Origin: Candidatus Bathyarchaeota archaeon
GTDB taxonomy: Archaea; Thermoproteota; Bathyarchaeia; 40CM-2-53-6; RBG-13-38-9
Length of the DNA stretch: 64,000 bases
Assembly: GCA_963807605.1 (NCBI GenBank)
Contig: CAWECG010000001.1
Span: forward strand, 128,001-192,000
Reading direction: 5' to 3'
This document shows, in pieces, positions 4,399 to 57,036 of this stretch (its first letter is position 1; every line of letters begins with the position of its first letter). The position numbers and the translations under genes were made by a program. The notes under the pieces were generated by a model that saw only the letters and a list, made by a program, of their open reading frames with translations, made no database searches and was not told the origin of the DNA.

Positions 4399-4419
4399 AG
4401 CGTGCGCTGTGAAGGTCAA

Positions 4420-5778
4420 TCAGCGGAAAGTTTCAGCTTGCGTCTGTCTCAGCTTCAATAGGAAGGATTCTTCGTTCAATTTGACATCGTCGTAGGTGAT
4501 TACCATGTCTCTAGAAATCGTTCTTTTTACTTGGATACCATCGGCGAAGCCAAGAGGCAGCAAATTCTCCTTTGTAGCAGTATCTGCTTCTTCTGCGAGC
4601 CCATAAATCGTATATCCTCCAGAGCCGTCCAGCACATCTCCCGGCTTCAGATTCCTCTTGGCTGCAGTTATAACCTCTGCGACGGGTCTAGTAGGTAGTG
4701 GTGCTCCAGTCGGTTGTTCAAATAATGCTGCTCGGATCAGCGAGATCGACGCTTCGAGACCTGCTAGATGGTGTGGTCTGAATATGAGAGCATTTTTTCC
4801 TCCCATAGAGCAACCGTAGCTCCCTAGGATTTTCATTACTTCTCTATCTTCGCTAGTAATCACAACGAAGACGCCCCACCGTAGATTATCCTCAATTCTT
4901 TGGCCGTCCTGGCTGTCCCATGGGATAACCTCGGTGACACCTTCGCTCTCAAGTATTCCCCCCTCTTTCTTTAAACTTAGTACTTTAGGAATCTCTTTTT
5001 TTGGTACTGAAGAAAAGTGCATTCCTCTAATATCCGGTTTCAAGCCTGTTGCGTTGCAGACCGCGGTCATTTCTACGGCACATTTTGTTGTGTCGATGAA
5101 GCTGTTATACATCTTCAGGTTTGGCCGCAGACGTTTAATTTCCTCCTGCGTCCAACCGAACCTTGGGAGTGCATCATCAGGCGTCAAATGTCTCCATTCC
5201 AATCTGGCGGCAGTCCCTTCACCTGCAGCTACAACTCTAAATCCTGAGGATACAGCCCAATCGTAGAGTTCAACTATTACAGCTGGCTGATCCCCGTAAG
5301 CCATACTGTAAACTACGCCTTCCTCCTTCGCCATCTTAGCTAAGAGCGGCCCAACTACAACTTCGGCTTCAACCGTAGCCATCACCACATGTTTCTTATT
5401 CTTTATAGCGTGGTAGGCGTGTCTAGCTCCTGCTTCCGCACTTCCCGTAGCTTCAAGGATAACATCGACATCGCTCTCCATCACCACTTGGCTATTGCCT
5501 GTGATTACGGGGACCCTCTTCTCGATAAAATGGTTCGCAGCATCGACGTCTTTAACTTCAGCTATCTCGTTAGGCTTATGACCAGCGGATACATACCCTT
5601 GAATCGCTCTCTCTTTCTCTATATCCGCTACCATAGAGATGTCTATACCTGGGATCTTCGCTACTTGTCTCATTACTGAAACGCCGAAAAAGCCCGCGCC
5701 AATAATCCCAGCCTTAATCGGCTTGTTGGTCTCCTCAAGTTTCCTAAGCTTGAGCCATGTAACAGTGCTCATCTTCAT
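4420..5778 (-). CDS. Homoserine-dehydrogenase-like NAD(P) oxidoreductase with C-terminal SAF domain
   Basis: GIIGAGFFG Rossmann motif, GDQPA, AKRNLKPGDVLDGSGGY, LLPLGFA. Confidence 0.88.
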   Translation of the reverse strand: MKMSTVTWLKLRKLEETNKPIKAGIIGAGFFGVSVMRQVAKIPGIDISMVADIEKERAIQGYVSAGHKPNEIAEVKDVDAANHFIEKRVPVITGNSQVVMESDVDVILEATGSAEAGARHAYHAIKNKKHVVMATVEAEVVVGPLLAKMAKEEGVVYSMAYGDQPAVIVELYDWAVSSGFRVVAAGEGTAARLEWRHLTPDDALPRFGWTQEEIKRLRPNLKMYNSFIDTTKCAVEMTAVCNATGLKPDIRGMHFSSVPKKEIPKVLSLKKEGGILESEGVTEVIPWDSQDGQRIEDNLRWGVFVVITSEDREVMKILGSYGCSMGGKNALIFRPHHLAGLEASISLIRAALFEQPTGAPLPTRPVAEVITAAKRNLKPGDVLDGSGGYTIYGLAEEADTATKENLLPLGFADGIQVKRTISRDMVITYDDVKLNEESFLLKLRQTQAETFR

Positions 5779-6600
5779 ATCGCCATCAAATAATTAGAGT
5801 CCAAGTAATCAAAGGTAAAACAATCAATAGAAGAATAAAGCTTCTCCCAATTGGGTGGAGGGCTACTGAACGAAAATTTGTTAATTTGCTCTGTGAGAAG
5901 CTTCCAGAAAATGTGCGCATTATGACTGTAGCTAGGAATCAGGATGAGGCAGCAAAATCAAATCAAGAATTGCAGAAAGCATTCAACCATCCAAACTACG
6001 AGTCGACCCTCAGAAGTATATGGTAGAAATGAAGGGTCGATTCTGACCAATGAGTCTATTGCTTCTTGGGCTTTGTGAGGTGTACTTTGAGTTTGGAATC
6101 TCTAAAAGAGACATCGATGTGTGGGGAAAGCCCCCTGATGTTGACTATTACCAAAACATCGAAGTCAAGAACAGAAGAGATCCACTCAAAGAGGCTGAAC
6201 TAGAGAACCAACAACATCAATTTACTACTAACTCCAGATGAAGCATACAAGAAGTAGAGAATACTTGAGTAAGAAGAACAAAGGTAATGCTACAAGCCTG
6301 ATAATACTAGGCATAATGATATTTGGCATAGCTTTGATGGCTAATGCTGTGGGTAACATTGTTTTTCCAAGTACTGCTAGCATGGCTGAAGCCTATAGTG
6401 GATAGTATTGAAGCGTTGATGCTTGATCTTCTATACTATAATTCACCTTTAGCCTATGGTTAGAATAGCTAGAAGAACTTATCATCATATGATTAATCCT
6501 TCAATAATGCCTATGGATGATGATTAGCGTGTCTTCAGCATCTAGGATATAGTACTTCAGTATCTCAAAGTGCCTCTATGGTATATATTTAATGATACAT

Positions 6601-6866
6601 GCAAGCATACTGAAGCCTCAAAAGTGTAGCTGGCAAGCCTTAGCATTAAGCTTGCCAAAGCTTACCGAAGCCTTCTGAAGCTTACTAGGCTTATGTGGTG
6701 TATTAGTATCCAGTTCTGGTGAATGCTAGGGAAGCATACCGATAAGCTTCGACAAGCTTGATCAAGCCTAAGCCTTTCGAAGCATTGAAGCATCTAAGTG
6801 TATCAGAATGTGTTAAAGTGTCTTTAAAGTGCTACACAATGCTCTCATAGTGCTTCTAAAGTGCTC
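6601..6866. repeat. Degenerate AAGC(C/T/A) / AAGTG repeat tract with ~10-11 bp period
   Basis: Units start at 6603, 6613, 6622, 6635, 6648, 6658, 6668, 6678, then 6732, 6744, 6754, 6764, then 6796, 6816, 6827, 6859; no ORF of 60 aa or more. Confidence 0.7.
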
Positions 6867-6917
6867 TTTGATCATGCGAGATCGTGGGATTCTACATCTT
6901 TCGAGGGTGGAGATGTG

Positions 6918-6952
6918 CTAGTACCATGTAATTTTACTAGTACCATGTAATT
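6918..6952. repeat. 16-bp direct repeat CTAGTACCATGTAATT x2 (19-bp period)
   Basis: Exact copies at 6918-6933 and 6937-6952. Confidence 0.9.
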
Positions 6953-7111
6953 GCTCAGAACCATATACGGTCTAGACAGTACTCTATTGTACAAACTACT
7001 ATTATACTTGAGTAAGTATTGTACTCGGTACTTTAGTAAAGCAGTAGTCTTTAGGCAGCAAGACCCTTTTCAAAGGTGCTCACCTAGGGACACAAAATAG
7101 TCTGCTCTAAC

Positions 7112-7157
7112 GGTTCAAATCCGAATGCTCTCACCAGCTATGGCACACACACACAAT
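7112..7157 (+). repeat. Island repeat copy A (GGTTCAAAT-N5-TGCTCTC-ACCA-GCTATGGCACACAC)
   Basis: Matches copies at 9879, 9933, 12814 and 12866; a degenerate partner lies at 7069-7097. Confidence 0.85.
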
Positions 7158-7186
7158 AATATCCGATAGCGCACGCTAAGGCTTGA

Positions 7187-7342
7187 CTATACTTTATGAT
7201 GAATCTTCTCAAGCTTCTCCATAATCTCGCCTAGCTCCTTGATGATCTTGACTAGATTCGTATTTAGCATCTCAATTTCCGAATGGATACTATCGAGACA
7301 CCTCATCAACTCATTTGAGTCCACAGATCCAAATTCCGGCAG
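7187..7342 (-). CDS. Small coiled-coil hypothetical protein, 51 aa, CTG start
   Basis: GGAGGTGA Shine-Dalgarno just upstream; MPEFGSVDSNELMRCLDSIHSEIEMLNTNLVKIIKELGEIMEKLEKIHHKV; absent from the ORF track. Confidence 0.55.
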   Translation of the reverse strand: MPEFGSVDSNELMRCLDSIHSEIEMLNTNLVKIIKELGEIMEKLEKIHHKV

Positions 7343-7432
7343 GTCTCCTCACCTCCATATTCTTTATTCTGTATTAGCATGAGTTTGGCCCTATACTGCT
7401 CCTCAGCAGCCTTGATGATCTTCTCCCCGTTG

Positions 7433-7696
7433 CTACCAGTGAAAGAGATCTTTGAAGGCAACGATAATGTTCAGAGCGGTCAGTGCTATCAGAATGAGTG
7501 TGAGTCTGTTCAACCGGTCTGTCAGTTCATTCAGTCTCTCACTTGAATCATAGATCAGGTAGGTGGACAATAATAAGTAGGGGTCGTTACCTGCCAGTTC
7601 TTCGTATGCACTCAGGTTCTCTGCCAGCTTTCTAATACGTGGCCGAAGGACACTGGCAAGCTTCCTGGTGAGCTCTTCATGCTCTTTATACATCAC
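7433..7696 (-). CDS. Hypothetical protein, coiled coil plus C-terminal TM helix
   Basis: ORF track; RLNELTDRLNRLTLILIALTALNIIVAF. Confidence 0.6.
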   Translation of the reverse strand: MMYKEHEELTRKLASVLRPRIRKLAENLSAYEELAGNDPYLLLSTYLIYDSSERLNELTDRLNRLTLILIALTALNIIVAFKDLFHW

Positions 7697-7820
7697 CTAG
7701 ACTCCTCTATCAGTGCGAGTCTGGCTCCCCAGTACTTCTCTGCAGCCTTGGCAAGTTTCTTCATGGCCGGTAGGTTCGTCAGCGCGAGCGCTTAAGGAAA
7801 TCCTCTAGCGAGTGTGGTGC

Positions 7821-8645
7821 TCATTTTGATTGGTTCCCGATGACTGTAAGTTTGCCACTTTTGCCAACACTCACCTGCAGTTCTCCTTTGAACGCTTTTA
7901 CTCTTCCGTTCTCAATGTGAACAGTATCACCGATCGAGACCAAACCTATTTGGGCGTTCCAAAATGGAAACTTGATGGACCCAGTGCCATCAGAGATTGT
8001 TGAGTTTGATACACCGAGAGGGTTACCCCCGTACCTCGAGAAGACCGTCCTCGCGATTGGTTTCTCAACGACCCGGGCTTTCAGATTGACCCATTTGACT
8101 CCCGAATTTACATCTTTGACTTTCATGTCTACAGGTATCGCCTTTTCAATTTTGTTGAGTGTCGTGTATTCGTTCCATGGAGGGCTTTCAAGGTCAATTT
8201 CCGGCAGATGCTTCAACGTTGCCCCGGTAAGGCGTAGTTGAGTGATTACCTTTTGATCTTGTGTTACGAGAAAGACACCGTCATCCTTTGTCTTTTCGCG
8301 GCATTGGATCGATATATCCTTGTACGACGATCTCTCATGCGTCCACGCATCGAAGAAGCATTCAAAAAATTTGTGCGGGTCAAGCCCGTATTTCTTCGAA
8401 ACATAGAACAAGTACAAGATGTGTGTCATATCAGGCTTAAATTGCCGTTGGCCACGGGGTCTACCCCGTCCATAGTGCAACATCTCTCTTCGTAGAACAT
8501 GTAAGCCTGTCAACAAGATCAGGTTATTGTGAGTTGCCTTGCTCTTTAACATTTGATCATCAGCTAGCGCGTGGTTACTGAGGAATCTGGATGCGACGGA
8601 TACTTTGCTAAGCCCTTCACTCTGAAGATCTTTGGTAGAGGTCAA
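7821..8645 (-). CDS. Protein with C-terminal OB fold (RPA/SSB-like); true start probably downstream
   Basis: MKVKDV..VNLKARVVEK..ISDGTGSIKFPFWN..IGDTVHIENGRVKAFKGELQVSVG. Confidence 0.8.
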   Translation of the reverse strand: MTSTKDLQSEGLSKVSVASRFLSNHALADDQMLKSKATHNNLILLTGLHVLRREMLHYGRGRPRGQRQFKPDMTHILYLFYVSKKYGLDPHKFFECFFDAWTHERSSYKDISIQCREKTKDDGVFLVTQDQKVITQLRLTGATLKHLPEIDLESPPWNEYTTLNKIEKAIPVDMKVKDVNSGVKWVNLKARVVEKPIARTVFSRYGGNPLGVSNSTISDGTGSIKFPFWNAQIGLVSIGDTVHIENGRVKAFKGELQVSVGKSGKLTVIGNQSK

Positions 8646-8701
8646 GAGGTATCTTAAGAGATACTGAGCCTCTTCTCCGTCTCCTCAACGTTGTTAAGAA
8701 G

Positions 8702-9343
8702 GTGCTGTATATGGTGACTGACGAATTCTATCGATGGAGTTGTGAAATCTCGGCAAAGGAGAAGGCAGTCGTAACTATACAGAATGTTGTCGCCACGGCA
8801 AATCTAAAACAACGCTTAGACCTAGATATCATTGCGCGATTATTTCCTGGAACTGAGTATCGACCAGAACAATTTCCAGGGCTTGTTTTCAGATTGAAGA
8901 AACCGAAGACTGCGACACTCCTTTTCAGCTCTGGAAAGATGGTTTGCACTGGCTCTAAATCGGAACGACAAGCGAGGAAGGTAGTGTCAACTATTCTGAA
9001 TGAACTCAAAAGGAATAAAATTGTTATTGTTGGCAAACCTAGCATTCAGGTACAGAACATTGTATCTTCAGGCGGACTAGGCGGCTCAATAGATCTAGAG
9101 AAGACGACTTATTCACTGACGAAGACGATGTATGAACCTGAGCAATTTCCCGGCTTGATTTACCGGATGGATGAACCGAAAGTGGTTATGCTCCTCTTCG
9201 CAAGCGGTAACTTCGTCTGCACCGGGGCGAAGAAGGAAGAAGAAGTTCACCGCGCTGTAACCACACTTCAAGAGACGCTTGAGAAGAAGGAGCTCATTGA
9301 CTATAAGCAGACAGATAAAATAGTCTACTCAAATACCACATAA
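8702..9343 (+). CDS. tbp: TATA-box-binding protein
   Basis: Two repeats of IQNVVA..YxPEQFPGL..LLFxSG..VCTG. Confidence 0.96.
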   Translation: MLYMVTDEFYRWSCEISAKEKAVVTIQNVVATANLKQRLDLDIIARLFPGTEYRPEQFPGLVFRLKKPKTATLLFSSGKMVCTGSKSERQARKVVSTILNELKRNKIVIVGKPSIQVQNIVSSGGLGGSIDLEKTTYSLTKTMYEPEQFPGLIYRMDEPKVVMLLFASGNFVCTGAKKEEEVHRAVTTLQETLEKKELIDYKQTDKIVYSNTT

Positions 9344-9360
9344 CTTCTCGAGCGTACCCG

Positions 9361-9705
9361 TCAAAGGGATTTTGAAAGAGTTATCTCGATGGTTGAGACC
9401 GACCTCGTGCCGCCTTCCTCCCTGGGCATCTCTTCTGTCCCAAGACTCACGCGTTCAACCTTGAGGTTTTTCATGAACCTACGTCTGGTTATTTCCGCGA
9501 CGTCAACTGCGGTTGATATGGCCTGACCTCTGGCTTTGAGGTTTACTTCTTTTGTCTCTCCTCTACCAATGATGGCCATCACGGACAACACATAGTCCAT
9601 GGGCGGGTTTCGTCCTATGAATACAGTGTTAGGTTCCTTAGACAAGATATCACCAAGCATTTCATGCGTGTTAACGTGCGAACACACATATAAGCACTTA
9701 ACCAC
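9361..9705 (-). CDS. alba: Chromatin protein Alba
   Basis: VFIG..PMDYV, LKARGQAISTAVDVAE, VSTIEITL; start probably near 9660. Confidence 0.94.
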   Translation of the reverse strand: MVKCLYVCSHVNTHEMLGDILSKEPNTVFIGRNPPMDYVLSVMAIIGRGETKEVNLKARGQAISTAVDVAEITRRRFMKNLKVERVSLGTEEMPREEGGTRSVSTIEITLSKSL

Positions 9706-9843
9706 TTTCAGACGGTCCCGTAATGTTCCTTAATTGTTAGCGCGCTTGTCTCAGATTTCATCCTAGAAATGTCCGCGTGGATGTCCACGCCGAAACCAGT
9801 ATCCACGTGACCGCACAAAACAGCCAGTTATCTATATCCCCCC

Positions 9844-10014
9844 TTAGCTGGTGAGCACACACACAATCAATGCCCAACGGTTCAATTTACGATGCTCTCA
9901 CCAAGGGACACACACACAAAACAAAGCCTAGCGGTTCAAATTAGGGTGCTCTCACCAGCTATGGCACACACAATTCATTCCCCTCATGTTGGGAGAAGAA
10001 TCTCGCAAACCCTC
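9844..10014 (+). repeat. Island repeat cluster: inverted partial copy, copies B (9879) and C (9933), and extension
   Basis: GGTTCAATT TACGA TGCTCTC ACCA and GGTTCAAAT TAGGG TGCTCTC ACCA, 54 bp apart. Confidence 0.85.
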
Positions 10015-10241
10015 TCTTTATCTTACGGATGACTCGCTACGCTCGCCAAAATATGAGTTCTATGACGATACTATGCACCTATGGAGAAGGCCAATATTTC
10101 CAGTAGATTCTTGGAGTCTGCCTTAGAAGTGGATAAGAAAGCTCCAAGATTCAGTCAAAAAAAGGCAAGACTGTAGAAAGGCTTTTTAAAATATGCATTG
10201 CACACCACTTTCATTGGGTTCAATAGTATCAGTGACATCCC

Positions 10242-10781
10242 TTGTCCAAGAATATGACGATTCCTGATTGGGTAAGAGTTCTAAGAGTCATGGTGGGTTG
10301 GATCGCAATCGTGGCCTCAGTAGTCGTCCTCGCTTGGCCAGGCCTTGCAATCTTCACCCTTCTTTTCCTCCTTTCATTCGCCCTGCTCTTTTTGGGTGTC
10401 GCTAGAATTGCTCATAGTTTCGCAGCTAAACTGTGGTCGAAAGGGCACCGCGCACTTCACGCAGTTGCTGGTGTTCTGGCGCTCATCCTAGGAGTACTAG
10501 TCCTTGCATTTCCTGGGCTTGGCATTGCTACTCTAGTCTTCTTACTCGCTTTTGCGCTACTAGCTTATGGTATTGTAAGCTTGGTGATAGGTGGATCTGC
10601 CGTTGCAGGTCTCTTATCAAAATTCGTGAGGGCGCTTCTCATCATAGTTGGTTCGCTCAGCATCATTTTCTCGCTCTTAGTCATTGTGTTCCCGGCGGTC
10701 GGACTCGTATCACTAGTGATAATGCTTTCGGTTTCATTTCTCCTGAACGGTATTGAGAGCATAATTTCAGGAATTAAGTGA
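10242..10781 (+). CDS. HdeD/DUF308 family membrane protein
   Basis: Six TM helices arranged as three G..A....V.VLAxPG repeats. Confidence 0.8.
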   Translation: MSKNMTIPDWVRVLRVMVGWIAIVASVVVLAWPGLAIFTLLFLLSFALLFLGVARIAHSFAAKLWSKGHRALHAVAGVLALILGVLVLAFPGLGIATLVFLLAFALLAYGIVSLVIGGSAVAGLLSKFVRALLIIVGSLSIIFSLLVIVFPAVGLVSLVIMLSVSFLLNGIESIISGIK

Positions 10782-10986
10782 ACGAGTCAGGAACCCGCAG
10801 AAACTGCGATTGAACAATGTGAAGTATCTTGCTTGGCAACAGAGTAGAAATCCCACCGATCTTGATTGTCGCCAAACACCTCTCATTTTTTTTGCGCGGG
10901 CTGTAGACCAGTCATCACGAAGAAACGGTTTCCAGTCTATCATGTTTAATCCTCCGAGCGTAACGAGCCATTCTTCAGAATAAAGA

Positions 10987-11065
10987 AGGGGTTTGGGGAA
11001 TTCTTCCCCAACATGAGGGGGAGGAATAATTGTGTGTGTGCTCACCCGCTATGGCACACACAATT
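10987..11065. repeat. Island repeat variant, hairpin-forming, inverted relative to 9964-10014
   Basis: AATTGTGTGTGTGCTCACCCGCTATGGCACACACAATT; 10987-11041 is approximately the reverse complement of 9964-10014. Confidence 0.8.
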
Positions 11066-11224
11066 CAACGCTGCTCGCTCCGCTCGCAGAATTCCTAGGA
11101 GGGGGATGTATTTTGACCATAGAATAAGGTTGAAGAGGCGCTCGAGAAGCAATCCTGATGGAAAATCACGTTCGTGAGATTGAATATGAAAAAAGGTGGT
11201 TCCTGCTCTATGAAGAGCGGGAGT

Positions 11225-11431
11225 TTACTCTTTCTTTCCGAACATGCTGCCGAGTTTGCTGGCAACTCCTCCGGTGGGGGTTCCGCCAGCTAGCACAGCG
11301 TCAATCTGACTCGCAACTGGAGCTGGAAGTTTACTCTTGAGCACGCCTGCGACGGCATCAATAGCACTCTTAGCTTGCGCCTCTGACAAACCGGTTTTCT
11401 GAGCGACGGCTGAAACAATAGCGCTTGACAT
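11225..11431 (-). CDS. Small DUF2267-like helical protein
   Basis: GGAGGTGA SD, then MSSAIVSAVAQKTGLSEAQAKSAIDAVAGVLKSKLPAPVASQID. Confidence 0.7.
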   Translation of the reverse strand: MSSAIVSAVAQKTGLSEAQAKSAIDAVAGVLKSKLPAPVASQIDAVLAGGTPTGGVASKLGSMFGKKE

Positions 11432-11541
11432 ACATTCACCTCCAGTGTCTATGTTTGCATGAAGAAGAGAATCGCTATTTAAAGATGTGCGCACAACTCG
11501 CGCGCGTAAGTGTTAAAAACAGTGTGACCTATCTTTAAACT

Positions 11542-12123
11542 ATGTCATCTATTGTTGGAAATCTGATGCAACAAGTAGCGACAGGAGATAACCTGTCCGC
11601 CATTACCAAGTCGGTCGGTGGAGATAATCAGAAAGGGGTTCAATCTGCCCTGAGCATGGCTTTGCCCCTGCTCATGGGTTCCATGGCGAACAGCGCATCA
11701 ACGCCAGGCGGAGCTGGCATGCTCACAAATATGCTGGGACAAATGGGGGGCAGCAATCCCGCGGACAACCTCGGGAGTTATCTAAGCAACCCTCAAGCAG
11801 CGGGTGGGTCAGGTATGCTGAACACGCTGCTCGGGAGCAAGATGGGTACCATCCAGAACGCAATCTCGCAGAAGACCGGACTCCCCCCTGCAGTGGTCGG
11901 CAAGGTACTCGTCATAGCGATGCCAATGGTCATGGGCTACGTCGGCAAGATGTTCACAGGACAGAAGGTGGACCAGAATAGCCTCTCCAATCTTCTTGGG
12001 CAGCAGTCGAAGATGGCCATGCAGTCTTCACCCGAAGCCGCCAATATGGCAAAACAGCTCCTCGCCACGAAAGAGGAGAGCGGGGGCATCATGGGCATGC
12101 TGAAGAAGTTGCTCGGAAGTTAA
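11542..12123 (+). CDS. DUF937 family protein
   Basis: ALPLLMGSMA..ML..LLGS...IQNAISQKTGL..MPMVMG pattern; GC3-rich codons unlike neighbours. Confidence 0.8.
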   Translation: MSSIVGNLMQQVATGDNLSAITKSVGGDNQKGVQSALSMALPLLMGSMANSASTPGGAGMLTNMLGQMGGSNPADNLGSYLSNPQAAGGSGMLNTLLGSKMGTIQNAISQKTGLPPAVVGKVLVIAMPMVMGYVGKMFTGQKVDQNSLSNLLGQQSKMAMQSSPEAANMAKQLLATKEESGGIMGMLKKLLGS

Positions 12124-12422
12124 CCCAGTTCAGGAAATACCCCCATCCTTTTTTCTTTGTTTCTTTCCGATTTCGCCGCTGTAGTGTGATGTTGCTCTCA
12201 TTGAATTCTTATTTTTTATAAGAATACGCCGTGACGTTTTCACATCACGAGTTCTCATAATATTACTCTTCGTATAATCGAAAAATCTCACGTTCCCCTG
12301 AAATCTAACTCCTCAACTCCCTCCTACACGCCGCTAACTTAATCAGGGCGGCGGGGGCGGCGCATCATTAGTACCACACAAAAAAACTTAAGTGAATTAT
12401 CAAGAGAATAACGAAAAGAGAG

Positions 12423-12674
12423 GTGATTGTGTTGGCTAAAGTGAAGAAGCGTTCGGAGGAGTTTGACAAGGCTAAGCTAAAAACTTCTTTGAAGAAGGCT
12501 GGAGCCAAAGAGGAACATGCAACAAAAGTTGCCGATAAGATTGCAGACAAAGTAAAAGATGGAACCACAACTGTAAAGATTTGGGAGTGGACTATAACAG
12601 AACTCAAACCATTAGATCCGAAGGCTGCAGAAGCATACCGAACTTACAAGAAACCGAAGCGGTCAACTAGCTAG
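12423..12674 (+). CDS. Stand-alone ATP-cone domain protein
   Basis: VKKRSEEFDKAKLKTSLKKAGA..TTVKI..ELK. Confidence 0.75.
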   Translation: MIVLAKVKKRSEEFDKAKLKTSLKKAGAKEEHATKVADKIADKVKDGTTTVKIWEWTITELKPLDPKAAEAYRTYKKPKRSTS

Positions 12675-12813
12675 ATACTGCCAAGGTGGATCAGCATAAG
12701 TAATTAAGTCTCCCGGTGGAGTGGGGCTATATGATTTTGCGCTGGCTCCGCTCCCTTCTCCCTAATGCGCTTAAGTACCTCTGTGCGCGTTGGTAGGGCA
12801 TCTTCCCCCTATT

Positions 12814-12907
12814 GGTTCAAAATGCGTTGCTCGCACCACTAGACCCACCACCACCAAAAATCACGGGTTCAAATTGCGATGCTCTCACCAGCTATAGCAC
12901 ACACACC
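12814..12907 (+). repeat. Island repeat copies D (12814) and E (12866)
   Basis: GGTTCAAAA TGCGT TGCTCGC ACCA and GGTTCAAAT TGCGA TGCTCTC ACCA GCTATAGCACACACAC, 52 bp apart. Confidence 0.85.
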
Positions 12908-13066
12908 GAGGCTCGCAGGGGATTTGATTGAACTCGCAGGACCACCGAACCAGCTTGTTCCAAAAGACCTCCAACGACAGACCCCACCCGAAAACCAACA
13001 ACAACCAACAAGAAGCTTTAATACGATTGTCCGAGCAACACCCTTAGTACCGGGTGCGTTTTTCTA

Positions 13067-13489
13067 TTGACCGTTCTGAAGGCTTCCGGTAAAAATTTGA
13101 GATTGTCAACTGTTTTCCTATTCCTCACCCTACTCACTTCACTGTTCTTTTTGGAGAGTGGGGTTGTGAATGTCGCTGCCTCCCCAACAGATTGGACCAT
13201 GTTCCATCAAAACCTCACTCATACTGGATTAACACCGGATGTTGTAACACCACCACTTAACGTGGCCTGGAACTACACAACAGGCTGGGTTGTCTCTTCT
13301 TCTCCTGCTGTTTCCGGGGGTTTCGTTTACGTAGGCTCAGGCTCAGGGGTTGATAAAGTGTATGGGTTTGCGAGCGCAACGCCGATTCCAGAGTATCCCA
13401 TATACATCTTTCCACTCGTGGCCTCGCTCACAGTCGCCATGCTTGCGCTAAGGCGTACTCGCTTCAAATCCCACGAACCGATGCAGTAA
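13067..13489 (+). CDS. Secreted protein with one PQQ-type propeller blade and a PEF-CTERM-like sorting signal
   Basis: Signal peptide, DWTMFHQNLTHTG, VSSSPAVSGGFVYVGS, IPEYP-TM-RRTR. Confidence 0.75.
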   Translation: MTVLKASGKNLRLSTVFLFLTLLTSLFFLESGVVNVAASPTDWTMFHQNLTHTGLTPDVVTPPLNVAWNYTTGWVVSSSPAVSGGFVYVGSGSGVDKVYGFASATPIPEYPIYIFPLVASLTVAMLALRRTRFKSHEPMQ

Positions 13490-13877
13490 AATCGCGAAAG
13501 GCAACGCCTCCTATCTGATGAAGAGAATAAACTTTTGACGTAAAGTCTTCCAGCGCTAGGACGCGCGCGCTTGCCCAGATAAGTAAGCAGGAAAGGCTCA
13601 TCGACTCCTTTCTCTTTGAGATGCTTGACCAAGCCGTATCCGTCACGGTTGAAGTTCACAAATCTCTCTTTATCCATCAAACCCATCCAAAGGACTTTTC
13701 TCAAAGAAGTATTACTGTCCTGAACATCAACCAAGAGACTAGTTTTGACGGATTAGAAGCTGTTCGGCTATTTGGATCGGCTGCGTCAGAACGCCCAGAT
13801 CTTAGATGAAGCCGTAGTGAATGCTCAGAAAATGGTGAGGCTTGAGGTTGGTCCATCTTTCTTGCTGTCTCGAACAG

Positions 13878-14840
13878 TCAATCTTCAAGCTGTGGCCGTA
13901 GCAGTGATCCGAGTTCGATAACCTCCGCATTTGGGTTTAGTGTTCGATCCAACACTACTATTCGGTTGTGGTTGTAGCGACCATTCGCGAGTCTCTGAAG
14001 AATAATTGACTCAGCCTTGCCACGACCGATGTAGGTGCCTGCAGAGTAATGCAGACTAAATCCGACAAGGACTATGAGAGCATAATGGTAAGAAATAGGT
14101 GCCTCTGCCCAGAGAACTTTGTAGAAGATTCCTAGCAGAGTGACCAGTATGTTGAGACCGATAATCGATCCGAATACAGCGGTTAGAAGAGTTGAGTGGA
14201 ATGGTCCTGAATTGATGCCGATGATCTTGAAGCGCCTGAAATATGGAAGGGCAATCGAAGGGACCAGGCCCGAGATCATGGTGACCACGATCAACCCCGG
14301 TGTCAGCGTGAGTGAAAATAGCACACCGGTCCCACGGTTAGGAATAGCAAAGAAGTTCAATGTATGCAGTAAAAACCGTAGCATACCAGGCTTTGTACTT
14401 AAGGTCCTTGCCAGGTCAACACTGTAGATGTCCCATCCTAGGGCAATCGACGTGAAGAACAATATTAATGGCAGGTAGACTATCTGAGATTTCTGGATGA
14501 GGGCCCTCATCTTTCCGGGTTGCAAGAGTTTTTCCTCCTTAGGTCTGATCACCTGCTTCGTCTTAGTGAGCCTCCCAAGCAATCCAACTATCCCTAACGA
14601 GCATTTGCCTCCGAGGAGTATGATTGACGCATAACCCAGCCCTATGACCAGAAGCCCTACTGTTGACGTAAAGAGTGCGACTGCAAATGGATCAAGACCA
14701 ACATGTGTGAGCTGGGGGATTGAGAACGTTGAAACCGCAGCGACAGAATACGCAACGAATCCTAGGATCAGTGGTGCAGCCGCATCGATGACCGATTCAC
14801 GTTCGGTAAATCTTCCCTTGTTCTCAGCTTGTTCAACCAT
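13878..14840 (-). CDS. Hypothetical multi-pass membrane protein
   Basis: 320-aa ORF with about six hydrophobic segments. Confidence 0.65.
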   Translation of the reverse strand: MVEQAENKGRFTERESVIDAAAPLILGFVAYSVAAVSTFSIPQLTHVGLDPFAVALFTSTVGLLVIGLGYASIILLGGKCSLGIVGLLGRLTKTKQVIRPKEEKLLQPGKMRALIQKSQIVYLPLILFFTSIALGWDIYSVDLARTLSTKPGMLRFLLHTLNFFAIPNRGTGVLFSLTLTPGLIVVTMISGLVPSIALPYFRRFKIIGINSGPFHSTLLTAVFGSIIGLNILVTLLGIFYKVLWAEAPISYHYALIVLVGFSLHYSAGTYIGRGKAESIILQRLANGRYNHNRIVVLDRTLNPNAEVIELGSLLRPQLED

Positions 14841-15335
14841 TCACGGAGTCATCTCTCTTAATCCATCTGGACGCCCAGTCGATAGCATTCTTCAGGACGC
14901 CTGGAATAGAATAATTGTATTCAGGTGTTGCGATTATTTATATATGCCAGTAAAATGACGCTATGAAAAACGCTTTCTGAACTTGGGTCAGAATAGATGT
15001 TTCTGCTGGCCAGACCCGTCCGCACCATGCTCCCTTGAGAGCGATCATTGACTGGGTTACTAGCACGCGCCTTTAACCGTGACCAAACTCTTCGAGGTAT
15101 TCTTAGGCATAATCTCAAGGAGATAATCATCGATCAAATTCCGAATCTCAATCGGCTTCATCTCACAAACGCGAGACCAAGCCAACTGCTTCTCTATGAG
15201 TCACCTCTCAAAAAGACCCCAGACACTTTTATATGATGGACTTCGACTGTAACGCCGCAACCAAACATCAGGCGAATCCGTACATAGAAATACAGTCTCC
15301 AAAGTATCTGAAAATGACAAATGTGTCAAGATTAA

Positions 15336-15755
15336 GTGGTTATGTTGCCCTACCGGGTGGTCCTAGACTCAAATTTCCTTATTCTACCTCTCACGCTCAG
15401 GCTGGACATCTTCTCAGAGATTGAGAGGCTTCTATCTGGACGAGTAGAGTTTCTCGTCGTCAGCTCTGTCAGAAAGGAACTTGAGAAACTCTCGTCAAAA
15501 AATAGTGAAATTGGCAGAAGGGCAGCATTCGCCTTAAAGCTTCTGGATAGGTGCATCTATGTCAACCTGGATCTGGAACAACGAACGACGGTTGATGAGA
15601 CACTCGTTGAATTTGCACGGCAGAATAAGGTTATAGTAGCAACTTCAGATATGCCCCTCAGAAAGAAACTAAGAGATATAAACGTGCCAGTAATCTATGT
15701 AAGAGACTATTCCCGGCTCGAACTTGAAGGATTTCCCATCAAGAATGGAGATTAG
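15336..15755 (+). CDS. PIN domain protein (Fcf1/Utp24-like)
   Basis: VVLDSNFL, VDETL, VATSD..LRKKL..VPVIYVR; usual position before rpoE1. Confidence 0.9.
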   Translation: MVMLPYRVVLDSNFLILPLTLRLDIFSEIERLLSGRVEFLVVSSVRKELEKLSSKNSEIGRRAAFALKLLDRCIYVNLDLEQRTTVDETLVEFARQNKVIVATSDMPLRKKLRDINVPVIYVRDYSRLELEGFPIKNGD

Positions 15756-18273: not shown

Positions 18274-20089
18274 TCACATGCCCCAGAGCGGGTTCCCCTT
18301 TCTCATTATCTCTTTGAGTTCATCCAGAAGAGCCAGCTCTTCGGAGTTTAGGTAATCTCTAAGTCTTGTGGAGAGCTCCTTTGCTGATGGTTCGGGAACG
18401 ACCACATAGAGAACATCGCCTTCGAAGACATTTCTATTCATGACCGCTTTGTCTACTGAGACTGCAACTTGCATGCCTGCTTTTGCTTCGTCAACGTCTT
18501 TTCCTTTGTCTTGAAGTCTCAAGACTGTTCCAATCCTTTTGCCGTCCTTGTTTATCAGTGGGGCTTTCTGTCTGACCGTTCCTGCTAGGATCTCTACTCC
18601 GAATATTGCTGGTTTACTGTGTCTGAATACGTATCCTTGGAGAACGTGTATCTTCCCAGGCTTGATGTGGCGGGCTAGCTCCGCTTTCACATTTTCGGCT
18701 TTTTCAGCTTCCATCCACCTCGAGTAGCTGTCAAGCAAGTCATAGATCACGTCTGCCTGAATTACGGGGATGCCTCTTCTTCCTGCTTCTACCTCAGCAT
18801 CAGGGAGTAGTCTGACATTGAATCCCAAGACTACACCGAGCAGACGATCCTCCTCTCTCACTATGCCTGCCTCAACGACCTCTCGTTTGGAAATATCGCC
18901 TACATCGGCTAATCTTATCGGTGTGTTTGACTCTCTCAGTGACGCGATTATCGCCTCAAGAGCCCCCAGCGTGTCAGTCTTGAGGACGATTCCGTTTCGG
19001 TCGGTCTGGATCCTCAGACTCTCAAATTCTTCTTTAACCATCTTTGAGAAGGTTGCAGTAGATTCGCCTTCTGGACCAGCATATAGAGAGGAGCCTGCGA
19101 GGGCTTTCTCCAAGTTGGGGGCTACAATCTTGATGCCAGCAGCGGCCTTGACGCCGCGCACATTTGAGAACTTCTCTCGTGGATCTCTGATCTCATCGAG
19201 AGGTTTAGGAACAAGAATTGCCCGAACATTAGTAACTATGGGGCCTTCTTTGCCTCCCAGGACTATCTGGTCGCCGACATTCAATACACCATCATAGATG
19301 ATTGCGTTAACAGTTGTACCTAAGCCGGTTTCTTCTTTGACTTCTAGAACCGTTCCCTTAGCTGGTCCAGTAGTTGTCAATAGTTCTTCTTTCATGAATG
19401 ATTGGGTCAGTCCAACCAACATCGCAAGCAGTTCCCGGATTCCTTCCCCCGTCTTTGCGCTTGTCGGAATAATGGCGACCGTCTTGGTGAAGTCCTTGAT
19501 CCTATCGAATCTGTCCGCCTGTAAGCCAAATTTGGACAGTTCTCCCATGATGGTGTATACCCGGTTATCTATGTCTCTCTGGACTTCTGGAGGTTGTTGC
19601 GCGATCTCGGAACTGATCGATTTGGTATCGATTCTCCTCCATCCGGGTACCATGTCTATCTTATTTGCTGCGACCAAGAAGGGCGTTTTTCTAGTCTTCA
19701 GTATCTCTATGGATTCCTCTGTCTGAGGTTCAACGCCTTTCGTTATGTCGATAACGAGTATCGCGATGTCAGCAGCCGAACCTCCTCGACGTCGCAAGTT
19801 TGAGAAGCTCTCGTGGCCTGGGGTATCGATGAAGAGCAATCCCGGTATACCAATTTGGAATTTGAATTGTTCAAGGGTCTCCCCGTATACCTCCTTGATT
19901 GTTTCTGTCGGTAGGAGACTCGCGCCGATCCATTGTGTTATCAGTCCCGGCTCCCTCTTTGCGACAGAAGTGCCTCTGATCTGATCGAGAAGCGTTGTCT
20001 TGCCGTGATCTACATAGCCCGTCGCCGTGCGGTCAGTGAGTTTGCAACGTATGGCCTAGAACCACGACAATTGGCTGACGAATTGACAA
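18274..20089 (-). CDS. infB: Translation initiation factor aIF5B (IF-2), two exons: 20089-20051 and 20013-18274
   Basis: Exon 1 MSIRQPIVVVLGH joined to exon 2 VDHGKTTLLDQIRGT..ITQWIGA..FIDTPGHE..NKID; the ORF track misses the first 71 aa. Confidence 0.95.
20014..20050 (-). other. 37-nt bulge-helix-bulge (BHB) intron in the aIF5B mRNA
   Basis: Exon helix UCUA/UAGA, central helix GGCC/GGCU, two 3-nt bulges AU^A and AU^G, intron helix CGUUGC/GCGACG; removal restores GHVDHGKT. Confidence 0.92.
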
Positions 20090-20187
20090 GGGTGCATTCC
20101 CTCTGGAGTCCAATGGGTGTCGAACTCCTTAAGTGTTACACTCTGATGGTCTTTCAGATTGTTCTTGCGAAGCATTTGCTAGAAGTC

Positions 20188-23986: not shown

Positions 23987-24072
23987 TCCGTTTCTTGCTC
24001 ACAATTTGTACGATTCTTCTTTAAATTCTGAATGCGTAGCTGAGGATAAGCTTAAAAGATTTTCTTTTGCGT

Positions 24073-25151: not shown

Positions 25152-25196
25152 TTTTGCGTGATTTTTTGTTGAGCGAATTGCGAGCTTTGAAATGGC

Positions 25197-37734: not shown

Positions 37735-37814
37735 GAGAACATAACATCGCACTTATACCTGGCGATGGTATTGGCCCAGAACAGACTGAAGCTGCACTGA
37801 AGGTTTTAGAAGCG
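37731..37814 (+). pseudogene. 5' remnant of the native isopropylmalate/isocitrate dehydrogenase-family gene
   Basis: MREHNIALIPGDGIGPEQTEAALKVLEA; ATGA overlap with leuD; ends at AGCGCGCGCT. Confidence 0.88.
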
Positions 37815-37860
37815 CGCGCTAAGAGTATAAGAGAAAAATGCTAAGGAGAAAAGAAGAACG

Positions 37861-38922
37861 ATGAGAAAGAAATATAATGTCGCAGTAATTGGCGGTGACG
37901 GTACAGGTCCGGAAGTGGTAGCAGAAGGATTAAAAGTCCTGAAAGCAGCTTCGAATGAATTTGGTTTTTCGTATGATACGACAATGTTTGATTTCGGTGG
38001 TGAGCGGTACCTGAAGACCGGAAAAACAATTACCGATGAAGAACTGGAAGGATTGAAAAAGTTTGATGCGATCTATCTTGGTGCAATCGGACATCCGGAT
38101 GTAAAACCGGGAATTCTGGAGCAAGGAATTCTTCTCAAGATACGATTTGCGCTCGATCAGTATATTAATTTACGTCCGGTGAAACTCTATAATGAAGCCT
38201 TTTGTCCCTTAAAGGATAAGAAACCGGAAGATGTTGATTTCGTCGTTGTGCGTGAAAATTCCGAAGGCCTCTACAAAGGACTCGGCAGTTTTGAAAATAA
38301 AGGGACAAAAAATGAAGTAGCAATTCAAATATCGCACAATACACGGAAAGGCGTTGAACGCTGTATTCGCTATGCGTTTGAATACTGCAAGAAACGCAAC
38401 AGCAAGAAAAAGAAACTCACGCTCTGCGGAAAAACGAATGTCCTGACATATGCATGGGATCTCTGGCAGCGAACATTTGATGAAGTGAAAAAAGAATATC
38501 CAGACATTCAAACCGAGTATGTGAATGTTGATGCAACAACCATGTGGTTTGTAAAAAATCCAGAATGGTTTGATGTGATTGTTACTGATAATTTATTCGG
38601 TGATATTATCACTGATCTTGGAGCGATGGTGCAAGGCGGTATGGGTATCGCCGCGGGTGGCAATATTAATCCGGAAGGCGTTTCTATGTTTGAACCGATC
38701 GGCGGATCTGCACCAAAGTATACCGGGAAACATGTTATTAATCCGCTTGCAGGGATTTGCGCCCTTGGGATGCTTCTGGAAAATATCGGTGAAGAAAAAG
38801 CCGGCAAAGGCGTTGAGAATACAGTGATTCGTCTTGTTCAGACTAAGATAAGAAGCCTTTCAGCAGGAAAGATGGGGTATACCACCGAAGAAGTCGGCGA
38901 TATGGTTGCAGGCGGGTTATAA
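37861..38922 (+). CDS. leuB: 3-isopropylmalate dehydrogenase, apparently of foreign (bacterial-like) origin
   Basis: [50 protein letters not shown]; codon usage (ATT, TTT, GAA, CCG) unlike neighbours; AAGGAG upstream. Confidence 0.92.
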
Positions 38923-38942
38923 GAAAAACACGCGCGCGCTGT

Positions 38943-39101
38943 GAAAAGGAAGACGACACGAAGTGGACGAATGCAGCTAACGCAATTGAGGAAGCCTTCG
39001 TCAACAATCTAGAACAAGGCGTCTACACACCTGATCTTGGAGGGAAGAGTAGAACAGCGGAAGTTGGAAAAGCAATAGCACAACAAATAATCGAGGGATA
39101 A
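38943..39101 (+). pseudogene. 3' remnant of the native isopropylmalate/isocitrate dehydrogenase-family gene
   Basis: EKEDDTKWTNAANAIEEAFVNNLEQGVYTPDLGGKSRTAEVGKAIAQQIIEG*; stop lies 2 nt before the leuA ATG. Confidence 0.88.
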
Positions 39102-48940: not shown

Positions 48941-48942
48941 TT

Positions 48943-52448: not shown

Positions 52449-52717
52449 AAGGTCTTCTTAACGCATGCTCTCCAGAGCCTACTATAGGTAGCAATTTTAA
52501 CCTCGCCACTGTAGCCGTATTCATGGTTATTCTTTCTAAAACAGCATGTACTAGCTGCCGTTATGAGGATGCCTTATGTTCTGCTCGCAAACGGAACTAT
52601 ACGGATGGTCATTGTTTCCATCGTGAAAAGATGGAAGATCAGGCAAATGCCTGGCTTTCGGGGACTAGTGAGGCTAAGACATGGGGAAAGGTGAAGGAGA
52701 GCGTACGTTTATGATCA

Positions 52718-53218: not shown

Positions 53219-53519
53219 GAATTGTCTTCCTCAACCTTGATGAACACAAATCTCAGGTTCTGTAGGTTCCTTCTTCAGAAGAAACTAATGAGACTATGGA
53301 TTGCTCCATGAGGTTCCTTCCCCAGCTTGGAAGGGGATCCTGCGCTGTGGATCTCTGGAGTCTTAAACACACAAGTTACAATACATATCTTTTAAAATGG
53401 GTCGACTGATAGTTCGCCAGCCACTTTACAACAGCCAGATCGCCAAACATGTGACGTTTGACCGACCAGGATCCCGCAAAATACAGATATAGCGTAGATG
53501 AGGAGTTCGTTGAACAGGA

Positions 53520-54950: not shown

Positions 54951-55201
54951 ATATAACAATCAATATCCGCCTTCGAAACACACGATTGGCTAAGGCCCTC
55001 GCAAAGGCTCTTGAACCTGATAATACGCTTGCTCCGTCAACACTGAGTGTAAAGACTTGGGCAAAGAAGGACATTGCAACAACATCGATAACCTGTAGAA
55101 AGAGCCTTGAAACATTCATAGCAACCATAGATGACTTACTATTGTGTGCGGATGCGGCACATAAGACGCTGGAGGATGTTGAAACTGGTAAACGAGCTTA
55201 G
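54947..55201 (+). CDS. pcc1: KEOPS subunit Pcc1
   Basis: ALEPDN..ATIDDLL pattern and synteny. Confidence 0.85.
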   Translation: MNITINIRLRNTRLAKALAKALEPDNTLAPSTLSVKTWAKKDIATTSITCRKSLETFIATIDDLLLCADAAHKTLEDVETGKRA

Positions 55202-55202
55202 G

Positions 55203-56759
55203 ATGTGCGCAAAGATCCTACTGAGGTTTAGTGGAGATATCGAAAAGGCAAAAGAATCAATTGGCGAAGCGATTGAAGAAGCAAACAAGACAATCTTGAT
55301 CAAAGGCGCACCCCAAAATCAGGAAGCCGAGGCTGCAAGAATAATCACTTGGAATGTTAAAGGCTCGTCTCTAGAATTGGAGATCGATTCAGGGAGACTC
55401 GTCAGGGCAACCACTGCCGCCCTTAGGCTGCAAAAATTCTTGGGAAACATCTTAGGCAGAGACTTCAAGATTGGGATACGGGAGCTGAAGGCTGAGACGA
55501 TTGAATTCTCGATTCAAAGCGATCATGAAATTGATCGCGAAGTAATTAATCGAATAAAAGCGATTCCAAATATCTCAAGTGTCAAGCATGAGGCTAACAG
55601 GGTAAGGATAACAATTGGCCAGATGAGTGAACACGATCTAAAGAACAACGTCCCTGACAGGCTCATAGCCAGGGCCAAGGATCTCTTGGTCAGCGCTCCA
55701 AAACCACTCACCCCCTTCCAACCGGTTCTTGTTGTAAAGAGGGGCGAGGTCAAAAAGGCGAGATTTGACAAAGATCCGATGCAGGTCGCCATAAATTTAG
55801 GATGGATCAAAGAATTCCCTGGACGCGGACAATGGATCTACACAACTCCCTACGCCCAGCTATTCGAGATCATAAGGGATAGTCTCATTGACGAAGTCGC
55901 AACTCATCTAGGCTTTCAACCATTCATGCTTCCCAAACTGATACCATTAGAGATCATGAGGAAGATGCCAGGATACCTCGATGATATCCCTGAAGGAATG
56001 TACTATTGCTTTCCTCCTCCAAGAGACCCAGAAGCCTTCAGCACATTCAAGGAGACTCTGAAGCTTACAAAGGAGATATCCAAGGAGGAACTCAAGAAGG
56101 CCCTCAAAGATCCAGAGTATGTGCTTGCTCCAGCCCAATGTGAACCATTCTGGCAGTTCTACGGAAAGGAGACCTTGAATCAGGACGATTACCCATACAA
56201 GCTCTACGACACCTCGGGCTGGACTTACAGATGGGAGGGAGGTGGGGTAGAAGGTATGGTGAGAGTACATGAATTTCAGAGGATCGAACTGACGTACCTC
56301 GGTACTCCAAAACAGGTGATCGAGATTCGAGACGCCGTACTGGACAGGCTACTCAATGTTGCGGACAGAACACTTGATATGGAATGGAGGGTGACAGCGG
56401 CGATACCCTTCTGGGCACGTGAAGGAACCATAGAAATGAATATTCAAGACAGCGCGGAAGTACCTGCGTACGATCTTGAGATATATCTGCCATACAGAGG
56501 AGCCAGAGAGACATCCGAGTGGCTCGAAGTTGCGGGATGCTTCGTACACAAACTGAAATTCGTGGACAGCTTCGGTATACGCGAGATCAAGAATAGAGAG
56601 ACCTGGACAGGATGCTCGGGCCTCGGCTTGACACGATGGGTCGCGGCCTTCCTGGCAACTCATGGCTTTGAACCAGAAGACTGGCCAAAGAATGTACAAG
56701 CCAACTTCAATGAGAATTACAGGTTGCCCAAGAGTCTGCTCTGGCCACCGAAAAGATAA
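55203..56759 (+). CDS. serS: Seryl-tRNA synthetase, methanogen (type 2) form
   Basis: IDSGRLVRA N-domain, GWIKEFPGRGQW, PAQCEPF, SGWTYRWEGGG, EFQRIE, WTGCSGLGLTRW. Confidence 0.92.
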   Translation: MCAKILLRFSGDIEKAKESIGEAIEEANKTILIKGAPQNQEAEAARIITWNVKGSSLELEIDSGRLVRATTAALRLQKFLGNILGRDFKIGIRELKAETIEFSIQSDHEIDREVINRIKAIPNISSVKHEANRVRITIGQMSEHDLKNNVPDRLIARAKDLLVSAPKPLTPFQPVLVVKRGEVKKARFDKDPMQVAINLGWIKEFPGRGQWIYTTPYAQLFEIIRDSLIDEVATHLGFQPFMLPKLIPLEIMRKMPGYLDDIPEGMYYCFPPPRDPEAFSTFKETLKLTKEISKEELKKALKDPEYVLAPAQCEPFWQFYGKETLNQDDYPYKLYDTSGWTYRWEGGGVEGMVRVHEFQRIELTYLGTPKQVIEIRDAVLDRLLNVADRTLDMEWRVTAAIPFWAREGTIEMNIQDSAEVPAYDLEIYLPYRGARETSEWLEVAGCFVHKLKFVDSFGIREIKNRETWTGCSGLGLTRWVAAFLATHGFEPEDWPKNVQANFNENYRLPKSLLWPPKR

Positions 56760-57036
56760 AGACAATCCAGGCAGACGCTAACGGTGGGCTAAGAAAATAC
56801 CTTCATCAGAGGATCTAAAGCAAAACAATGCGCGCTCTTCTTGGAGGACGAAGTGACTACGAACCTCTAGGGTTCTGCCAAGTTGTCGGTTGATACGCCT
56901 CTAGAATTGAACTGTCAAAAATCGGTTGATGCAAGCGACCTTACCAAGTCTCTATCGGTTCGTCTAGTTTCTAACTCGTGTCAAAAATCATCGAGTGCGA
57001 CACATGTTAAATCTGCATGTGGAGTGAATCTTAACC

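Follow-up and report, generated by a model that had tools for sequence, protein, structure and literature searches.

The highly iterated palindrome HIP1 (GCGATCGC) and the alternate highly iterated palindromes are cyanobacterial; HIP1 occurs throughout genes, at about one copy per gene, and is tied to cognate methyltransferases (PMC4390886, PMC5861425, PMC13756078). It is also the closest published kin (PMC4390886, PMC5861425) of the element considered here, the ten-base palindrome AGCGCGCGCT and its close variants, which we analysed in a 64,000-nt stretch of an uncultured soil archaeon, Candidatus Bathyarchaeota (hereafter the window, G000:C1:128001-192000), in its source genome (G000; 2.65 Mb, 5 contigs, 47% G+C) and in related genomes. 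Like HIP1, this is a short, GC-rich palindrome that is hyper-abundant in its lineage, has unique flanks and is patchily distributed, and HIP1 has been discussed in connection with recombination and horizontal transfer. Unlike HIP1, the archaeal runs of alternating C and G are 92% intergenic and lie at nucleotide-precise joints of unrelated DNA, and C5 methylase is absent from most of the genomes rich in them. The presence of the motif at exact joints, including both ends of a bacterial leuB gene, suggests that DNA is broken and rejoined in a way not previously described; we found no account in the open literature searched of a Bathyarchaeia palindrome or of intergenic GCGCGCGC in archaea.

Throughout, a run is a maximal alternating-CG stretch, at least 8 nt long in the genome-wide junction counts (n = 320 in G000), and the non-coding set is the 548 kb left by a crude gene caller whose calls cover 79% of the genome. 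With 106 exact copies, every one in unique flanks, AGCGCGCGCT is the commonest non-microsatellite 10-mer of G000; the reversed control word occurs five times. Gene calls exclude 92% of the copies, and the 98 intergenic ones compare with 0.3-2.5 expected under Markov models of order 0-3 and with 3 intergenic occurrences of the control word, a 40- to 300-fold over-representation. This comparison with a Markov background had been proposed by an earlier interpretation of the window from its letters alone (the sequence-only reading), and it confirms the excess genome-wide. Copies with one mismatch number 244, 80% of them intergenic, and the degenerate sites among those discussed below are therefore plausibly decayed copies of the motif. 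Run length has a sharp peak at 8 nt with A..T flanks (106/198), and conservation in a logo of the flanks is limited to 10-12 nt around the motif. Runs are clustered along the genome (dispersion index 3.8) and are found in tandem, convergent and divergent spacers at broadly distributed distances from gene ends, with a slight bias to convergent spacers and stop-proximal positions. The window taken alone shows a modest excess, with 5 matches at no more than one mismatch against 1.3 expected, a number reached in 1 of 100 shuffles.

The ends of intragenomic homology, taken from a self-BLAST of G000, coincide with these runs. An alignment end lies within 3 nt of 69 of the 320 runs, compared with 13.5±4.2 for random intergenic sites, and, plotted by offset from the run edge, alignment starts and ends rise to 8-13 per nucleotide at 0/+1 nt, where the local background is about 0.6; alignments pass through no more than 12 of the runs. 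In low-copy duplications with identity of 90% or more, one copy carries a run at 33 of 126 ends, whereas the same ends shifted outward by 30-100 nt carry 3-6 and those shifted inward 0-1. For 57 of 70 runs with an alignment end, the partner copy lacks a run there and its sequence simply continues, about 40% of the time inside a gene. Where junctions could be resolved (n = 32), the run directly adjoins the end of homology in 21 and is 1 nt away from it in 7, and microhomology of at least 2 nt between run and source is present at 8 of 31 junctions, against about 2 expected. At two places, C3:74808 and C1:353532, a run stands in place of a few nucleotides between collinear flanks; the regions corresponding to two run-flanked inserts, L120 and L122, are non-syntenic in relatives. 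Classified by their run-bearing ends, 34 of 63 duplicated pairs have none, 24 have one and 3-4 have both, so that the two ends behave independently. A coupling of the runs at the two ends of an insert, of the kind a target duplication produces, was considered and rejected, the 3-4 pairs being near the expectation for independence. The sequence-only reading had claimed that the motif marks junctions of foreign and truncated DNA, made without target-site duplications; genome-wide, the motif does stand at nucleotide-precise joints of unrelated or truncated DNA, far more often than local or intergenic controls do, and with no target-site duplication. Because the association with joints is sharp to the nucleotide and survives local controls, it argues against a mere intergenic signal.

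In the window, the junction evidence from sequence comparison is strong at the two runs of the leuB locus (37.7-39.1 kb; Table 1). In G000 a 28-codon native stub is followed by AGCGCGCGCT, a bacterial-type leuB, ACGCGCGCGCT, a C-terminal remnant of the native gene and leuA, while in the related genome G002 an archaeal-type leuB of 342 codons is intact between leuD and leuA. The inserted LeuB protein has 39% identity to the native type and 75-92% to LeuB of bacterial metagenome-assembled genomes (MAGs) or contigs (Omnitrophota, Ignavibacteriales and others), where the gene context is proC-leuB-hom, and homology between the leader of the insert and the donor spacer extends all the way to the left run. 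The inserted leuB is of bacterial origin and replaced the middle of the native gene. The CG run is absent from the donor-like bacterial loci (up to 92% amino acid identity) and from both breakpoints of the native leuB of G002. As the sequence-only reading had seen, then, both native remnants break at the motif, and when each flank is aligned as it had suggested, the runs are templated neither by donor-like loci nor by the intact native gene.

The left junction and the architecture of the locus are common to G001, G008 and a metagenome contig, L163, all of which have, past the right run, a further 128 nt of native leuB that are missing from G000. Since these three keep the 128 nt, G000 has undergone a second, later deletion, beginning at the base immediately next to the right run. 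Over the cassette (window 37735-38940 compared with G001:C1, G008:C51 and L163), identity is 96-100% among G000, G001 and G008, against 70-80% for the flanking genes of these three genomes, which belong to two genera; between G000 and G001 it jumps from about 73% to about 98%. This indicates that the locus variant spread recently between species, by homologous recombination. The high-identity tract ends at varying points, 40-75 nt to the left of the run and, between G001 and G008, about 80 nt past the right run; because tract ends differ between pairs, an exchange of the cassette exactly at the runs is ruled out. Elsewhere in the family the operon leuB has been lost from G003, which keeps a 14-codon stub without a run and has a bacterial-type copy at another place, adjoining a run. 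G004, G007 and G010 have a bacterial-type leuB that is 70% identical, located in the operon in G004 and G007, and at these last two, both checked, there is no run.

The sequence-only reading had listed ten motif sites. All ten strings are where it placed them, four being degenerate copies and two no longer than 6-mers, and seven fall in an island that is absent from G001:C378, G002:C5 and G003:C339, where the genes at 2639-3874 and 15336-15755 are directly adjacent. Alignments support four of the island sites as junctions: 7168, 7781 and 9739, at which homology ends within 0-4 nt, and 13561. At the first, 7178-7309 has 97% identity to C3:253288-253418, a copy preceded at 8 nt by a perfect AGCGCGCGCT; the two have unrelated left flanks. 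The duplicated module (7777-9547) has 92% identity to C1:422156-423925, and this second copy breaks off within Alba, where a perfect run stands (C1:423926). At 9739, 94% identity to the Alba cassette of G001:C93 begins at the run and the upstream flanks are unrelated; all three Alba copies have their 3' run at the same position, followed by different DNA. The fragment at 13561 belongs to an integrase-like family whose full-length members (382-395 aa) extend past the shared …Y(P)GRK; homology stops at GGCAAGCG, with a 3-nt overlap with the run (GCG microhomology).

Evidence for the other sites is more graded. That 4399, at the start of a winged helix-turn-helix (wHTH)-like fragment of 55 codons (4248-4415, minus strand), is a junction is plausible, and the case for 56830 is weak. 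We found no outside homology for 11499 and no homologue of the 46-codon open reading frame (ORF) at 15062. A scan of the window finds exactly four runs of at least 8 nt (11499, 13562, 37812, 38931), all intergenic, 6-mers in intergenic DNA at 9740 and 56830, and 6-mers inside genes at 28478, 41330 and 41495. The earlier statement that core genes contain only these last three 6-mers is thus borne out; its companion, that all four pure runs of 8 nt or more stand at joints, holds for 37811, 38930 and 13561, with 11499 lacking the outside homology by which a joint would be recognised.

Table 1. Listed motif sites and associated features of the window (coordinates within the window)
Feature	Position	Strand	Remarks
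Genome-specific island, 11.5 kb	3876..15335		Holds seven listed motif sites
AGCGTGCGCT, one mismatch	4399..4408		12 nt past the stop of a DRL-type oxidoreductase gene; start of wHTH-like fragment
AGCGCACGCT, one mismatch	7168..7177		Left end of a 132-nt segment
AGCGCGAGCGCT, degenerate	7781..7792		Left end of duplicated SSB-like/TBP/Alba module
AGCGCGCT, 6-mer	9739..9746		Upstream of Alba gene; homology boundary with run-flanked Alba cassette of G001:C93
CGCGCGCG	11499..11506		Within the 47-nt spacer of divergent ORFs
ACGCGCGCGCT	13561..13571		Truncates integrase-like gene fragment (13571-13752, minus strand)
AGCACGCGC, degenerate	15062..15070		End of 46-codon ORF
Native (archaeal-type) leuB N-terminal stub, 28 codons	37731..37814	+	tblastn 75% identity to residues 1-28 of intact G002 leuB
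Left-junction AGCGCGCGCT	37811..37820		Native homology (…KVLEA, GAAGC) ends within the 10-mer; same in G001, G008, L163
Captured bacterial fragment	37821..38929	+	40-nt leader with AAGGAG, leuB ORF 37861-38922, 7-nt trailer
Right-junction ACGCGCGCGCT	38930..38940		Captured fragment meets native leuB C-terminal remnant; G001, G008, L163 compared
Native leuB C-terminal remnant, about 45 codons and stop	38961..39098	+	tblastn 64% identity to residues 297-341 of G002 leuB
GCGCGCT, 6-mer run	56830..56836		70 nt into a genome-specific stretch of 0.9 kb that follows the SerRS gene

Insertion sequences (IS) also meet the runs. An IS5/IS1182-like element of 1137 bp, with a 355-aa DDE transposase and inverted ends AGCCTCTTGCAATATT, is present as L119 (G000:C4:41596-42732) and six further copies, and in 6 of the 7 copies it has 6-nt CG stretches on both sides, the remaining copy having no 5' stretch. 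Because its transposase is confined to g1, g2 and g8, the element inserts into the palindromes and does not make the runs; the possibility that runs are its excision footprints, as with a transposon that has left, is ruled out by its absence from the run-rich genera g3, g4 and g7. Together with the G000 deletion and the Alba cassettes, these insertions show that existing runs are re-used, while the leuB locus and the replacements of a few nucleotides speak for the view that runs can also arise at a joint.

Abundance was compared among 16 genomes of the family and 201 of the class. We call run-rich the genomes of g1, g3, g4 and g7 within f1, those of f29 and 4 genomes of f17, and poor those of g5 and most others. 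GCGCGCGC occurs 298 and 325 times in the two species of the source genus, 120-227 times in G003, G004, G007 and G010, 7-21 times in g8 and only 0-1 times in the sister genus g5. Across the 201 class genomes, AGCGCGCGCT is rich in f1, reaches 13-131 copies in all five f29 genomes, is rich in 4 of 29 f17 genomes and in single genomes of f10 and f26, and is near zero elsewhere, so that about 25 of the 201 are motif-rich. The motif is therefore real, lineage-specific and patchy and is not an assembly artefact; its abundance in f1, f29 and parts of f17, f10 and f26 set against 0-1 copies in g5 fits the gain or loss of a factor.

The explanation that we favour, tentatively and with confidence a little short of even, is that AGCGCGCGCT and its close variants, of the form A-(alternating CG, 8-10 nt)-T, are the scars and re-usable breakpoints of a lineage-specific break-and-join process. 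The DNA ends to be joined would be chromosome breaks, copies of other genome segments and incoming foreign DNA, each of which could gain a short A(GC)n tail at its 3' end. Since such tails would be self-complementary, two tailed ends, or one tailed end and a short GC microhomology, could anneal and be sealed, leaving an 8-10-nt palindromic patch and no target duplication. Standing runs might then become preferred sites of new breaks, adjacent deletions and IS insertion, and through this preference would come to bound movable gene units. We prefer this account because of the sharp association with joints, the leuB and replacement events and the re-use of runs; from them we infer the tailing-and-annealing chemistry and a dedicated enzyme. 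A narrower version, in which an undescribed end-joining activity of several Bathyarchaeia lineages puts a fixed self-complementary A(GC)4T linker on DNA ends and so allows any two of them to be annealed and sealed, we regard as possible and hold less firmly than the process as such.

The nearest parallel in end joining is filler DNA, the N-nucleotides and templated insertions left by TdT/Pol mu, LigD polymerase or Pol theta. There too, extra nucleotides stand at the joint, microhomology is short, no target is duplicated and copied or foreign fragments are captured at breaks, but known filler is variable or copied from nearby, whereas the archaeal insert is one fixed self-complementary word. 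End joining by Ku/LigD or PolX also differs in its gene distribution: a Ku homologue was found in only 1 of the 16 family genomes, G000 itself (L147/L152, G000:C1:590767-591306), and the family genomes gave no convincing match to the PolX palm, the LigD polymerase domain not having been searched.

Several observations weigh against a joining process of this kind. The outer edges of the island (3876 and 15335) carry no run, nor do those of an insertion with terminal inverted repeats at 24069-25198, and about 74% of recent duplication ends are without one (about 26% with); the statement in the sequence-only reading that the motif builds the accessory genome was accordingly too strong. The direction that we infer for the replacements at C3:74808 and C1:353532 comes without outgroup polarisation, and at most single-ended junctions the data do not separate a freshly made patch from a run that the target already carried. 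None of the enzyme families tested tracks the motif, so that the co-occurring recombinase, polymerase, ligase partner or methylase that had been anticipated did not emerge: C5 methylase, reverse transcriptase, Ku, PolX, gyrase, Y1 transposase, ResT/TelK and Cas1 do not follow run abundance. In the family, PF00145 has a full match only in G002 and a 42-position fragment at the cut-off in G000, other methylases including m4C not having been tested. Gyrase (PF00521) was found in 3 of 201 class genomes, none run-rich; Y1 transposase (PF01797) is present in G000 and G001 and absent from G003, G004, G007, G010, G074, G082 and G204; PF16684 (ResT/TelK) has no match in G000; and a search for Y2 transposases gave 0 matches, as did its control. 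The integrase-like family occurs in 43 of the 201 class genomes, uncorrelated with runs.

Part of the evidence would be expected equally if runs were hotspots only, that is, fragile or recombinogenic sites (Z-DNA or hairpin-prone, stalling polymerases, or cleaved by topoisomerase or nuclease) that themselves arose by slippage or mutation bias. A nascent or broken 3' end at an existing run would switch template or join through 1-4 nt of microhomology, giving copy-paste insertions and adjacent deletions. The excess of pairs with a single run-bearing end (24) over those with two (3-4), the microhomology excess, the G000 deletion that begins exactly at an older run, the Alba cassettes with their shared run position and differing downstream DNA, and the IS insertions into runs are all in keeping with this, and (CA)n tracts, likewise alternating purine-pyrimidine, are also abundant in G000. 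What fragility leaves unexplained is the origin of at least 300 runs with unique flanks and a sharp 8-nt A..T form, the two-sided runs at the bacterial leuB, with none in the G002 coding sequence or donor-like loci, and the runs that replace a few nucleotides between collinear flanks. The absence of gyrase from every run-rich genome among the 201 speaks against gyrase cleavage and separates the runs from gyrase-associated extragenic sites. We consider a hotspot-only account unlikely and rank it first among the rivals, ahead of a palindrome-directed recombinase or transposase and then of a functional signal.

If instead a site-specific enzyme cut at the edge of the palindrome and moved that end into arbitrary DNA, a run would be a minimal recombination or transposition end, and DNA between runs would undergo one- or two-ended mobilisation loosely like that of integron cassettes, ISCR elements or Helitron-type capture. 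Run-bounded units (leuB, Alba and segments of 152-1015 bp) do stand in new contexts, no target is duplicated, an adjacent deletion keeps its run and the patchy phylogeny is what a mobile factor would give; the A..T flanks might be compared, by analogy, with those of Helitrons, which insert between A and T. We nevertheless find this doubtful, more so than the hotspot account, in view of the source copies without runs at segment ends (57/70), the statistical independence of the two insert ends, a 10-bp site that is very short for known recombinases and the failure of any transposase, HUH, Cas1, tyrosine-recombinase-like or telomere-resolvase family to track runs (with the Y2 search's control matching nothing). 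The integrase-like family (L151, G000:C4:98074-99219; C1:57359-58384; C1:341223-342326; C3:85875-86747) has a tyrosine-recombinase-like C-terminus (…HEFRD…GH…Y) and matches no Pfam family; CG runs truncate two of its members, and one is found beside an Alba cassette, in an insertion specific to G002.

Described systems of this kind resemble the archaeal one in part. As in integrons, single-gene units (leuB, Alba) are bounded by a recurring palindrome in varied contexts and foreign genes are captured, but there is no structured attC of 57-141 nt or other long structured boundary repeat and no IntI/attI platform (IntI itself not having been searched), orientation is not uniform, the majority of junctions have the element on one side only and it is missing from source copies. 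Repetitive extragenic palindromic sequences and their mosaic elements (REP/BIME) are likewise extragenic, iterated, palindromic and the target of an IS family (in the archaea, IS5/IS1182-like). REPs are imperfect hairpins of 20-40 nt, often clustered, and are spread by RAYT (Y1 HUH) transposases, whereas the archaeal motif is conserved over 10-12 nt only and Y1 is absent from most run-rich genomes. The hairpin-telomere sites of N15/KO2, resolved by enzymes of the TelN/TelK/ResT type, have TACGCGCGTA at their centre, and resolvase sites need long palindromic arms. They share a (T)A-(CG)n-T(A) palindrome where two DNA ends join, and telomere fusion can link unrelated DNA; here, by contrast, conservation spans only 10-12 nt and G000 has no ResT/TelK catalytic domain.

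A functional intergenic signal maintained by selection (an insulator, a protein-binding site, or an element associated with a terminator or promoter), and linked to junctions only through its position in spacers, would account for the intergenic placement of 92% of copies, for the slight preference for convergent spacers and stop-proximal positions and for the left leuB run that is intact in four lineages. That last conservation carries little weight, because the cassette spread recently (96-100% identity against 70-80% in the flanks). Selection on a spacer element would not be expected to produce an association with homology ends sharp to 0-1 nt and 5- to 8-fold over controls shifted by 30-100 nt in the same spacers, runs within broken coding sequences (leuB, Alba, integrase-like genes), occurrence in every type of spacer over a broad span of distances to gene ends, or a sister genus, g5, with 0-1 copies, and we judge this explanation very improbable. 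Chimeric joins or linker sequence from assembly or library preparation, for which only the general risk attached to MAGs speaks, can be dismissed almost entirely: identical leuB junctions recur in four independent assemblies whose flanks differ by 20-30%, which excludes the chimeric reads that the sequence-only reading had named as its possible undoing, and the motif is abundant in many independent assemblies, including one single-contig genome, and absent from close relatives.

The island contains further repeats. A 45-nt repeat similar to the 3' end of a tRNA (GGTTCAAAT…TGCTCTCACCAGCTATGG), with (CA)n after it, occurs at 7107-7151, 9874-9918, 9928-9972, 11018-11062 and 12861-12905, in at least 21 copies in the genome and in many copies in relatives; these are probably attachment-site or target-duplication copies of integrating elements. 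A link between them and the runs was considered and set aside, since only 4 of the 21 have a run within 200 nt. With such repeats and an integrase-like gene fragment present, other integration routes contribute to the island. Outside the island, the insertion at 24069-25198 is genome-specific (1.13 kb, absent from G001, G002 and G003), holds one 297-codon ORF between inverted ends (TTGCTGTGTTGC… / …GCAACACAGCA) and is probably a small mobile element.

The genes of the window include those for aIF5B and a methanogen-type SerRS and genes of the LysW pathway. The aIF5B gene (18274-20128, minus strand) is split within its P-loop: exon 1 ends …RQPIVVVLGH, and about 37 nt (20014-20050) intervene before VDHGKTTLL… resumes in another frame. 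Because the RNA is predicted to fold as helix, 3-nt bulge, 4-bp helix, 3-nt bulge and helix, the insert is probably a tRNA-type (bulge-helix-bulge) mRNA intron.

Bathyarchaeia are among the most abundant uncultured archaeal groups of soils and sediments. If their joints are indeed marked by a fixed palindromic word, past breaks, deletions and gene captures would be readable from sequence, and the enzyme chemistry behind them, either defined-sequence tailing or palindrome-directed cutting and joining, would be one not yet described. It would also offer a concrete mechanism for bacteria-to-archaea gene transfer in the group: a linker-adding activity, should it exist, would give these lineages a sequence-independent route to capture foreign genes such as the bacterial leuB and to shuffle gene-sized units. 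With about 25 of 201 genomes rich in the motif, the patchy distribution means that the responsible gene should be findable by phylogenetic profiling. Even if runs are hotspots only, they would explain where the variable genome of this lineage breaks.

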